Positions 29,875-31,790 are shown, numbered from the stretch's first letter. The stretch: 31,790 bases of DNA from a virus (IMGVR_UViG_3300008069_000054:1-31790); one strand, 5' to 3'. The notes: generated by a model not told the origin, from the letters alone. Program-made: numbers and translations.

Positions 29875-30062
29875 ACCCTCCGGCTTTTCAGAAAGGTCAG
29901 AGCCTTTTTTAACGGACTCTGTTTTTTGGTGCGGATAATGATTCCCTTACGCCCCTTACCGTGGGTGATGGTGAAGTCAATCGCCCTGGGGCTTTCGTTA
30001 CGCAATAACTGAGCAATACAACGCGGCTCATTCATAATCACAACCCCATCCACAAAAGCCAT
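29865..30062 (-). CDS. Small hypothetical protein (P2 orf78 position)
   Basis: 65-aa ORF between cox and B; basic C-terminus. Start uncertain. Confidence 0.5.
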   Translation of the reverse strand: MAFVDGVVIMNEPRCIAQLLRNESPRAIDFTITHGKGRKGIIIRTKKQSPLKKALTFLKSRRVWK

Positions 30063-30310
30063 GCATCACGCTGTTCAACCGGTCGGTTATAAAACGCCTC
30101 ACGTACAGCGCGATTAAACTCAGGAATGAAAACCCATTTTTCACCGGCACGAGCCTTCGGTTTGCAAGGATCACGCAATTCAATAATTGGTAATTTATTT
30201 GCCTTCACCATTTCACTGACGGCTGTCTTTGGCTTCCCTAATAAATCAGCAAATTTATCCACATGAACCGCATCAAGCGGATACTGAATCACATAATTTT
30301 CAGCGTCCAT
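30038..30310 (-). CDS. cox: Cox-like excisionase / transcriptional repressor of the lysogenic promoter
   Basis: About 90-aa protein (MDAENYVIQYPLDAVHVDKFADLLGKPKTAVSEMVKANKLPIIELRD...) resembling P2 Cox in length, HTH-like segment and conserved C-terminal WL.WMGL. It is the first gene of the early operon, divergent from C. Start chosen at the ATG preceded by GAGGG. Confidence 0.8.
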   Translation of the reverse strand: MDAENYVIQYPLDAVHVDKFADLLGKPKTAVSEMVKANKLPIIELRDPCKPKARAGEKWVFIPEFNRAVREAFYNRPVEQRDAWLLWMGL

Positions 30311-30387
30311 ATATGGTACCCTCATAGGATCCAGCCCTTTCTAAACCACTCAAAACCGTTTAGATGCTGGTTTATTCTCAAATCAAT

Positions 30388-30435
30388 GGAACCTATATAG
30401 GTTCCAGTTTTGAGGGAATTTAGTCCCTATATAGG
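30388..30435. promoter_or_regulatory. Immunity-region operator candidates: two copies of the palindrome CCTATATAGG (first extended to GGAACCTATATAGGTTCC)
   Basis: Read directly between cox and C: GGAACCTATATAGGTTCC at about 30388-30405 and CCCTATATAGG at about 30425-30435, centres about 34 bp apart. A third related palindrome CCATATATGG overlaps the cox start codon (about 30307-30316). Confidence 0.5.
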
Positions 30436-30446
30436 CACCATGTCAA

Positions 30447-30740
30447 ATGAAATTAAGCGAAAAGATTAAGGCCTTGCGTGAGGCTGAAGGGCTAAGCCAA
30501 TCAAAATTCTGTGAAATCATAGAGTTACCGCTAAGCACACTTAAAAAATATGAAGGAGGAAACTTTGAACCCGGTGGCACAGCTTTGCTAAAAATCACTA
30601 TGCATCCCACATTCCAAAAATATGCTCTATGGCTTATGACAGATAAAACCGCGCCGGACGCAGGACAAATCGCACCGGCTCTCGCGCACATTGGGCCAGA
30701 GTCAACAGAGTCCAACCACTCCGCGAAAAGGATTGGCTAA
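30447..30740 (+). CDS. C: Immunity repressor C (P2 C-like)
   Basis: 97-aa protein; C-terminal half (ITMHPTFQKYALWLMTDKTAPDAGQIAPALAH...) resembles P2 repressor C; N-terminal HTH region diverged. Position upstream of int and divergent from cox. Confidence 0.85.
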   Translation: MKLSEKIKALREAEGLSQSKFCEIIELPLSTLKKYEGGNFEPGGTALLKITMHPTFQKYALWLMTDKTAPDAGQIAPALAHIGPESTESNHSAKRIG

Positions 30741-30809
30741 CTCTATATAAAGATTACATTTTCACCATTTGCTACCAAGATGGTGAATACAGCGCCGGAG
30801 GGCTTTCTT

Positions 30810-31790
30810 ATGGCAATTAAGAAGCTCGATGATGGTCGCTATGAAGTGGACATTAGACCTCGCGGTCGCGACGGAAAACGCATCCGCAGGAAATTCGAAA
30901 GAAAAGCTGAAGCACTAGCATTTGAGCGATACACAATCGCCAATGCCAGTCAGAAAGAATGGGGAGGCCAGCGAGCAGACCGCCGGACTTTGAGTGAGTT
31001 GCTGGACATCTGGTGGAAATATCACGGGCAAAACCACGAGCATGGAACAAAAGAGTTTAATCATCTACTCAAAACCATCAGCGGCATAGGTGATATACCA
31101 GTGAGCAGGATGAGCAAAAGGGCTTTGATGGATTATCGTTCCATGCGACTACGTGATGGTATCAGTGCCGCAACGATAAACCGTGACATGTACCGATTAT
31201 CCGGCATGTTCACAAAATTAATTCAATTGGATGAATTTTCCGGGCAACACCCAATTCACGGACTGCCGCCACTGGCGGAGGCCAACCCTGAAATGACGTT
31301 CCTGGAAAAAGCAGAAATCGAAAAACTGTTAAATGTTTTGGCTGGTGATGACTTACTTGTCGCGCTTTTATGTCTGAGCACCGGAGGAAGATGGACGGAA
31401 GTTGCCACGCTAAAACCAGCACAGATTACAAATTGCAGGGTTACCTTCCTGAAAACCAAAAACGGTAAAAAGCGAACCGTGCCGATTTCTGAGGAACTGG
31501 AGAAAAAAGTTAAAGAGGAGGCCAGCGCCAAATTATTCAAAGTTGATTATGAGAAATTTTGCGGGATTTTACGCAGAGTGAAACCTGATATACCACCCAA
31601 TCAGGCAACCCACATCCTGCGGCATACATTCGCAAGCCATTTCATGATGAATGGGGGCAATATAATCGCACTGCAACAGATTCTGGGACATGCGAGCATT
31701 CAGCAGACGATGGCCTATGCGCACCTTGCGCCTGACTATCTGCAAAATGCCGTCGCTCTGAATCCACTAAAAGGCGGAGTGACGTTATAA
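30810..31790 (+). CDS. int: Tyrosine integrase (P2 Int-like)
   Basis: From the internal Met MAIKKLDDGRYEVDIRP..., which matches the P2 Int N-terminus; C-terminal catalytic region with HxxR...Y (ILRHTFASHFMMNGGNIIALQQILGHASIQQTMAYAHL). GGAGGG ribosome-binding site upstream of the chosen ATG. Stop is at the window end. Confidence 0.92.
   Translation: MAIKKLDDGRYEVDIRPRGRDGKRIRRKFERKAEALAFERYTIANASQKEWGGQRADRRTLSELLDIWWKYHGQNHEHGTKEFNHLLKTISGIGDIPVSRMSKRALMDYRSMRLRDGISAATINRDMYRLSGMFTKLIQLDEFSGQHPIHGLPPLAEANPEMTFLEKAEIEKLLNVLAGDDLLVALLCLSTGGRWTEVATLKPAQITNCRVTFLKTKNGKKRTVPISEELEKKVKEEASAKLFKVDYEKFCGILRRVKPDIPPNQATHILRHTFASHFMMNGGNIIALQQILGHASIQQTMAYAHLAPDYLQNAVALNPLKGGVTL

Follow-up and report, generated by a model that had tools for sequence, protein, structure and literature searches.

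In the lysis-lysogeny switches of P2-type phages, the promoters Pe and Pc face each other and give rise to overlapping transcripts (PMC1904263), and the C repressor of WPhi was shown experimentally to use two 10-bp half-sites that flank the Pe -10 element at a centre-to-centre distance of 34 bp (PMC1904268). The corresponding half-sites are 8 bp long and 22 bp apart in P2, and 8 bp long and 26 bp apart in P2 Hy dis (PMC1904268). WPhi has an 82-nt overlap between its Pe and Pc transcripts, its half-site O2 lies 60 nt from the Pc start (PMC1904263), and its Cox protein binds a 12-nt direct repeat (PMC5009727). P2 C is autoregulated (PMC3448106, PMC1904263), and seven immunity classes of P2-like coliphages had been described by 2006 and ten by 2011 (PMC2995052, PMC3448106). 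Here we analysed the cox-C region of a viral DNA of 31,790 nucleotides (IMGVR_UViG_3300008069_000054:1-31790; this whole stretch is referred to as the window), which, as judged from its sequence, is the lysis-lysogeny switch of a P2-like (Peduovirus) phage with the immunity type of Yersinia phage L-413C, an ordinary switch of a known kind. Two copies of the palindrome CCTATATAGG in this switch are very probably the half-sites O1 and O2 of its C operator, by which C would repress Pe, as indicated by covariation with the repressor, by natural mutants and by a WPhi-like geometry. What the sequences show directly is the anatomy of the locus, the covariation of site and recognition helix, and the natural operator mutants; C binding and its stoichiometry, the Pe and Pc starts, and autoregulation are inferred.

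Two palindromic sites at the predicted Pe promoter

The earlier note on this DNA had drawn attention to three short perfect palindromes between cox and C, and all three are present as described, with the two copies of CCTATATAGG flanking the predicted Pe -10 element 34 bp apart from centre to centre. Pe is predicted on the minus strand from a -35 hexamer TTGACA at 30441–30446, which abuts the C start codon, and a -10 hexamer TAAATT at 30417–30422, which aligns with the WPhi Pe -10 TATATT; with 18 nt between the hexamers and a 10/12 match, it was the sole promoter-like site found by a promoter scan of 30000–30800. At the place of the Pe -35, TGTCAA is conserved in P2 (where it is the annotated Pe -35), WPhi and P37, and at most of the 80 C-family loci described below. 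The predicted promoter-proximal half-site, O1, has its core at 30426–30435 in the spacer between -35 and -10 and reads CCTATATAGGCACCA together with its flank, and the core of the predicted promoter-distal half-site, O2, at 30392–30401, would fall at about +10 to +19 of the Pe transcript, whose start is predicted at ~30410 on the minus strand. The published half-sites were recovered as two copies of GTCACCAATA 34 bp apart in the WPhi record and as two copies of ATCTAAAC 22 bp apart in the P2 record, and the window can be described as WPhi operator geometry with a different half-site sequence.

Transferring the WPhi transcript distances through the alignment places the Pc start near 30327 and its -10 element near 30312–30319, with a predicted Pe/Pc overlap of ~84 nt. 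On this placement the two promoters face each other, as in P2-type switches (PMC1904263), and are not divergent as had been supposed. The related suggestion that the TATA cores of the palindromes double as -10 elements fails for the two C-site cores, which cannot be the Pe -10 since TAAATT (30422–30417) sits between them; the third palindrome alone may overlap the Pc -10, as far as the WPhi alignment indicates.

We compared the palindromes with chance expectation using dinucleotide shuffles. The window contains 21 perfect palindromes of at least 10 bp versus 35 +/- 5.5 in the shuffles, and in ~25% of shuffles three of them fall inside a 140-bp span; the cluster of three is thus not significant, nor is the third palindrome, CCATATATGG, by itself. 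The recurrence of an identical 10-bp palindrome within 60 bp is unusual, with 0.05 such cases expected per window, and no further copy of CCTATATAGG at up to one mismatch was found anywhere in the 31.8-kb window. O2 also lies in the longest palindrome of the window: GGAACCTATATAGGTTCC at 30388–30405 is part of a perfect 20-bp palindrome, TGGAACCTATATAGGTTCCA, at 30387–30406, where 0.155 palindromes of at least 18 bp are expected. The earlier note had set palindromic operators here against the direct repeats described for P2 C. The cores are indeed palindromic; a repeated palindrome is at the same time a direct repeat, and the two copies of CCTATATAGG extend asymmetrically as the direct repeat CCTATATAGGnnCCA, with 13/15 positions matching, so that the contrast is weaker than it seemed. 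A candidate IHF site at 30381–30393 was rejected for its mismatch to the consensus WATCAANNNNTTR.

The third palindrome (30307–30316) does overlap the cox start codon, which is the complement of CAT at 30308–30310 inside CCATATATGG and is so annotated in 8/10 related phage records; it aligns with the Pc -10 region of WPhi. Three AT-centred 10-bp palindromes within 130 bp between two divergent regulator genes could be taken for one lambda-like multipartite operator shared by C and Cox, a reading that we consider very improbable. Only two of the sites are related, CCATATATGG differing from CCTATATAGG at 6/10 positions; three-palindrome clusters arise in a quarter of shuffles, as above; and the P37 counterpart of the third palindrome is CCATCTATGT, in which the palindrome is not kept although Cox is 88% identical. 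Moreover, separate C and Cox operators have been reported for P2-family repressors (PMC1904263), and the WPhi Cox repeat aligns to 30333–30364 and not to the palindromes (PMC5009727). Because CCATATATGG has a different sequence, occurs at chance level and is absent from the related P37 switch, we read it neither as a third CCTATATAGG copy nor as a C site, and its earlier inclusion in the C operator is not upheld.

The site covaries with the recognition helix of C

The 80 C-family loci were collected with an alignment of four C proteins as query, the scan covering a single genome from each species; at each locus the Pe-proximal 26 bp were compared with the next 70 bp in both orientations, and CCTATATAGG-like sites were counted. 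Seven loci encode a C protein with the helix-3 motif ST[L/Y]KKYE, and at six of these seven, two CCTATATAGG sites (at most one mismatch) flank a -10-like element by TGTCAA. The six belong to Escherichia (L022), Enterobacter (L037), Dryocola (L041) and Pseudomonas (L074, L087, L093), with spacings of 34, 29, 29, 25, 25 and 24 bp, respectively, and the seventh, from Kosakonia (L023), has ACACATATAGGTTCCAT twice. Two CCTATATAGG sites were found at 0/72 other C-family loci, and a single CCTATATAGG-like site is present in three near relatives with altered helices (L024, L025, L040). The C proteins of the Pseudomonas loci are just 41–45% identical to the window C, and the flanks of the sites differ among lineages. 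The association of site and helix has a Fisher p of 2.5e-8, a value to be read with the phylogenetic non-independence of the loci, which, since they are related, count as about three (at least three) independent lineages. Variation tolerated in CCTATATAGG is confined to position 3 or its mirror position 8 (CCCATATAGG, CCTATATGGG), with the outer CC/GG invariant; because both halves are conserved, recognition of the whole dyad is favoured.

Cox is a DNA-binding repressor too and is encoded beside the sites, and it could in principle be Cox, not C, that binds CCTATATAGG. We find this hardly credible: the Cox proteins of WPhi and P37 are 82–88% identical to that of the window, yet their switches lack CCTATATAGG; the site instead follows the recognition helix of C; and the sites overlap Pe, the promoter on which C acts, whereas the one repressed by Cox is Pc (PMC3936717, PMC5009727).

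Across the wider C family, palindromic half-sites turn up often (L032, L048, L067/84/94, L090, L096), those of other classes including TCCTTATAAGGA, TTCCTTGCAAGGAA and GTCACATGTGAC. Three loci of one immunity type depart from direct repetition: in P37 (L002), L042 and L046 the distal half-site is inverted relative to the proximal one, about 32 bp away (GTCATTAAGTCAGGA versus the reverse complement GTCATTGGATCAGGA). P2-family operators therefore do not always follow the ‘direct repeat’ rule. The related L034 has its half-site copies in direct orientation. The advance here is modest and includes the assignment of a site by cross-genus covariation and the finding of frequent palindromic half-sites beyond this class, which qualifies the textbook view that P2-family repressors read non-palindromic direct repeats.

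Operator changes in lytic phages and prophages

The region 30000–30800 is 99.1–99.9% identical to ten distinct phages (18 GenBank/RefSeq records), namely Yersinia phage L-413C, ‘Escherichia phage P2’ from O157:H43 T22, FSL SP-004, P24B2, R18C, vB_YpM_50, P2_AC1, MET_P1_103_31, 569R9 and HQ103, which we compared position by position. The 171-bp switch was also found as a single chromosomal copy in 420 of 5,426 complete E. coli genomes. An immunity region present in ten phages and in this number of E. coli genomes is common and already sequenced.

R18C was published as a virulent P2-like phage, its lifestyle being left unexplained there (PMC6823313). R18C and the window do not differ in their C and Cox proteins, and the private changes of R18C in 801 bp are just two, 30401 G>A in the last base of O2 and 30427 C>A in the second base of O1; the chance that two random changes hit one in each 10-mer is ~3e-4. 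L-413C was derived from a temperate phage; it is lytic and forms clear plaques (PMC2893161, PMC3448106). The C of L-413C, too, is identical to that of the window, and the phage carries 30389 G>T in the O2 flank within the 20-bp palindrome, 30435 G>T in the last base of O1 and, within the Pe -10 hexamer, 30418 A>G. L-413C Cox additionally has P51L (window-equivalent 30159), unlike the window and all other phages compared, and this substitution may contribute to the lytic phenotype beside the operator changes. In WPhi, mutation of one half-site leaves repression intact and mutation of both abolishes it (PMC1904268), and the double half-site changes of R18C and L-413C parallel this need to mutate both. 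We interpret R18C and L-413C as probable double operator mutants of the vir type whose repressor gene is intact, a reading that is new here.

HQ103 (L013), isolated on Y. pestis, has a 7-bp deletion in C (window-equivalent 30603–30609), with a C of 61 amino acids in the annotation of the record; the deletion would be a different route to a lytic phenotype.

Among the 420 E. coli prophages, a 34-mer around O2 is unchanged in 415 and a 30-mer around O1 in 407, and the eight prophage variants that were read all lie outside the cores, at 30385, 30407, 30417 (three times), 30436, 30439 and 30440. By subtraction, ~76 of the 420 prophages differ within 30414–30418. The three 30417 variants (L014, L015, L016) are all A>G and turn the Pe -10 from TAAATT into TAAATC, with loss of the conserved final T; such prophages are probably promoter-down and locked.

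These patterns also bear on the idea that the palindromes are incidental AT-rich promoter sequence, part of the Pe and Pc -10 elements with no repressor role. The TATATA cores, the presence of two promoters in the region and the frequency with which single 10-bp palindromes occur by chance all speak for it, and we nevertheless assign it very little probability. The Pe -10, located from the conserved TTGACA, falls between the sites, and the TATATA of O1 is 7 nt from the -35; the positions that are conserved among loci and mutated in the lytic phages are the outer CC/GG, not the TATA; and the exact 10-mer recurs in Pseudomonas switches in spite of the divergent C proteins and different flanks there.

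Several observations weigh against the assignment of the two CCTATATAGG copies as C operators. The spacing of the sites differs by lineage (34, 29 and 25 bp) and does not correspond to integral helical turns, and for both reasons a simple model of two dimers interacting on the same face fits poorly. Lysis by L-413C cannot be assigned to the operator alone because Cox P51L is also present, and intact sites occur in other phage isolates. In lysogens, the eight variants read are drawn from ~94 in the 56-bp operator segment, and core variants may number at most 5 at O2 and 13 at O1. Pc scored below the threshold of the promoter scan in 30000–30800 and was placed by WPhi alignment alone, and by 2007 the operators whose location had been established were those of P2, P2 Hy dis and WPhi only (PMC1904268).

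Taking the two sites as C operators, repression would proceed as follows. C bound at O1 and O2, probably as one symmetric dimer per palindrome, would keep RNA polymerase off Pe, so that cox and the replication genes stay silent and the lysogen is immune to phages of the same class. C itself would be expressed from Pc, a weak promoter that faces Pe and has a transcript that must cross O2 and O1, and bound C could limit its own synthesis by standing in the path of this transcript, which would be in keeping with the autoregulation of P2 C. Read in this way, the analysis assigns an operator at the sequence level to an immunity type found in ~8% of the complete E. coli genomes, and double operator mutation offers a simple explanation for lysis by the plague-diagnostic phage L-413C and by the candidate therapeutic R18C, with a bearing on phage-therapy safety and on the engineering of obligately lytic P2-like phages.

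RNA structure, immunity class and known systems

The 20-bp palindrome around O2 lies at the 5′ end of the predicted Pe RNA, which folds it into a stem-loop (minimum free energy -16.0 kcal/mol, z = -4.6). We weighed whether the palindrome acts mainly at the RNA level, as a Pe 5′ stem-loop that stabilises the mRNA or takes part in Pe/Pc pairing, with the likeness to O1 being secondary. Each of the 30 distinct WPhi-like switches examined (L002, L003, L023-L053) has a hairpin at this position, with unlike stem sequences, for example TCAAAAGGT/ACCTTTTGA in WPhi and CCCGAAAAGGT/ACCTTTTCGGG in P37, and L033 has a 34-bp palindrome; the P2-like clade is without the Pe 5′ hairpin, and the L-413C change 30389 G>T disrupts one stem pair. 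RNAalifold applied to a MAFFT alignment of 21 Pe 5′ leaders returned no consensus structure, because the hairpins lie in shifted registers, and the covariation of the hairpin was judged by eye and the folding by per-sequence z-scores. A primarily RNA-level role would leave unexplained the second, non-hairpin copy at O1, the tracking of the C recognition helix by the 10-mer across genera and the R18C change in O1, and we hold it to be doubtful. Hairpin and operator are compatible, and an RNA role might be an added layer, not a replacement.

The stem-loop occupies the first ~35 nt of the predicted Pe transcript (window 30369–30414, minus strand), with the distal half-site in its loop or stem. 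An Rfam scan of 30200–30560 gave chance-level matches only (mir-2686 and GIR1, E ~0.5, far below gathering scores).

A fuller version of the operator reading can be offered tentatively, as a possibility we would not yet favour: the half-sites would be dyad-symmetric, each read by one C dimer, and O2 would form the apex of a covarying Pe 5′ stem-loop. If so, the ‘direct-repeat’ recognition of the P2 family would amount to two spaced dimer sites whose symmetry has been lost in P2 and WPhi. Such a history would offer an answer to a puzzle posed by the P2 C crystal structure, in which a symmetric dimer resembling palindrome binders acts on non-palindromic repeats, and one sequence would serve as both DNA operator and RNA element inside the ~84-nt Pe/Pc sense-antisense overlap.

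A nested inverted repeat lies between the third palindrome and O2. The inverted repeat CCAGC...GCTGG at 30329–30372 encloses TCTAAAC (30340–46) and GTTTAGA (30358–64). Its outer arms recur ~115–118 nt upstream of C in many C-family loci with compensatory changes (CCAGTCCCT/AGGGACTGG in WPhi, CAAACACCT/AGGTGTTTT in L027, CAACTGCC/GGCGGTTG in L032 and CCAACCC/GGGTTGG in L042), and the 12-nt Cox repeats of WPhi align within it, at the 30333–30364 stretch mentioned above. The inverted repeat may act as the Cox operator, as a stem in the leader RNA of Pc, or in both ways. Within it, GTTTAGAT at 30358–30365 is the exact reverse complement of the P2 half-site ATCTAAAC, with TCTAAAC 18 bp off in inverted orientation. 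It was considered as a cross-talk site for P2 C and set aside as probably coincidental, lying ~55–90 bp from the Pe promoter elements. A C at 30365, which breaks GTTTAGAT, is found in 8/10 related phages and 3/6 sampled prophages.

The identity of the locus as the cox-C switch of a P2-like phage is borne out by Pfam matches, PDB matches and gene order, which agree. The cox gene (30038–30310, minus strand; Pfam Phage_Cox, E = 1.2e-23) encodes the 90-residue Cox, a lytic repressor/excisionase, and has a GAGGG Shine-Dalgarno sequence 8 nt upstream of its start on the minus strand. A longer cox reading frame from 30325 was rejected, as its own Shine-Dalgarno would lie inside it and most records start at 30310. 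The immunity repressor C (30447–30740, plus strand) has 97 amino acids and matches Pfam HTH_3 and the P2 C structures 2XCJ/2L49 (E = 1.9e-21); the PDB match spans C residues 3–97, and Pfam reports helix-turn-helix domains only. The integrase gene follows C in the lysogenic operon (30780–31790, plus strand; Pfam Int_N and Phage_integrase) and corresponds to int in L-413C. P2, WPhi and L-413C likewise have cox, C and int in this order. An ATG overlapping the Pe -35, which is the C start in P2, opens just a 9-codon reading frame (MSNEIKRKD, 30440–30469) in another frame here; C starts at 30447, 7 nt past that ATG, as it does in WPhi.

At the DNA level, P37 matches throughout 30000–30800 at 80%, and the WPhi match is limited to the cox part (86%), similarity ending inside cox, at its start. 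The window C is 43% identical to that of P2, 56% to WPhi, 66% to P37 and 100% to L-413C, and Cox is 41%, 82% and 88% identical to those of P2, WPhi and P37, respectively. As the earlier note had seen, C has diverged mainly in its helix-turn-helix relative to P2 C: the differences are concentrated in helices 2–3, and the C-terminal half is conserved. Y31, S35, Y36 and R41 of P2 C, named as base-specific contacts in the structure paper (PMC2995052), are L, K, K and N at the equivalent positions of the window C. Neither the P2 half-site ATCTAAAC nor the WPhi half-site GTCACCAATA is present at the window Pe. Because both half-sites are absent there and the four contact residues differ, the phage is inferred to be heteroimmune to P2 and WPhi. 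The distinct specificity proposed earlier is supported in this sense, although it is not new, since the same switch is carried by L-413C and the 420 E. coli genomes.

Immunity classes were assigned by at least 95% identity of C together with an alignable, near-identical cox-C spacer (PMC3448106). The window agrees with the L-413C type, with a C that is 100% identical and a spacer that differs only at 30365, 30389, 30418 and 30435. It falls outside class I of P2 (C at least ~95% identical, ATCTAAAC copies 22 bp apart at Pe) with a C identity of 43%, and outside class III of WPhi (C at least ~95% identical, GTCACCAATA) with one of 56% and no GTCACCAATA at Pe. More broadly, it has the features of a P2-type C/Cox switch of Peduoviridae, namely a C-family helix-turn-helix repressor of ~100 amino acids, a cox gene transcribed away from it, int after C and, as read from the DNA, two repeated half-sites at Pe in the form of the CCTATATAGG pair. 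A 186-type switch is characterised by a two-domain CI of ~190 amino acids, a cII gene and several inverted-repeat operators of two types; the window instead encodes a 97-residue C-like repressor, and no cII-like open reading frame was found between cox and B.

Among described systems, the controllers of restriction-modification systems of the C.Esp1396I type provide a parallel: they are described as small helix-turn-helix dimers with a structure similar to that of P2 C (PMC2995052), and they bind two directly repeated palindromes with one dimer per site, the mode that we propose for the window C. They differ in belonging to an unrelated system, with a site spacing of 15 bp and activation and repression of restriction-modification genes. 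P2 itself shares with the window the fold family of C, its conserved C-terminal half, two half-sites flanking the Pe -10 and, as predicted for the window, facing promoters; it differs in its shorter, non-palindromic ATCTAAAC half-sites and 22-bp spacing, and in the low identities of C (43%) and Cox (41%). WPhi is closer, with the same gene order, operator geometry, TTGACA abutting the C start and Pe 5′ hairpin, a Cox that is 82% identical and a measured Pe/Pc overlap of 82 nt against the ~84 nt predicted here. Its half-site GTCACCAATA is, in contrast, non-palindromic where that of the window is the perfect palindrome CCTATATAGG; its C (56%) differs in the recognition helix, its DNA similarity stops at the cox start, and its direct 12-nt Cox repeat stands against the inverted candidate Cox boxes TCTAAAC/GTTTAGA of the window. 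Closest are L-413C, R18C and the ~420 E. coli prophages, with 100% identical C proteins and 99.1–100% identical switch DNA; L-413C and R18C, which are lytic, have changes in or beside both half-sites, whereas the sites of the window are wild-type and prophage-like.

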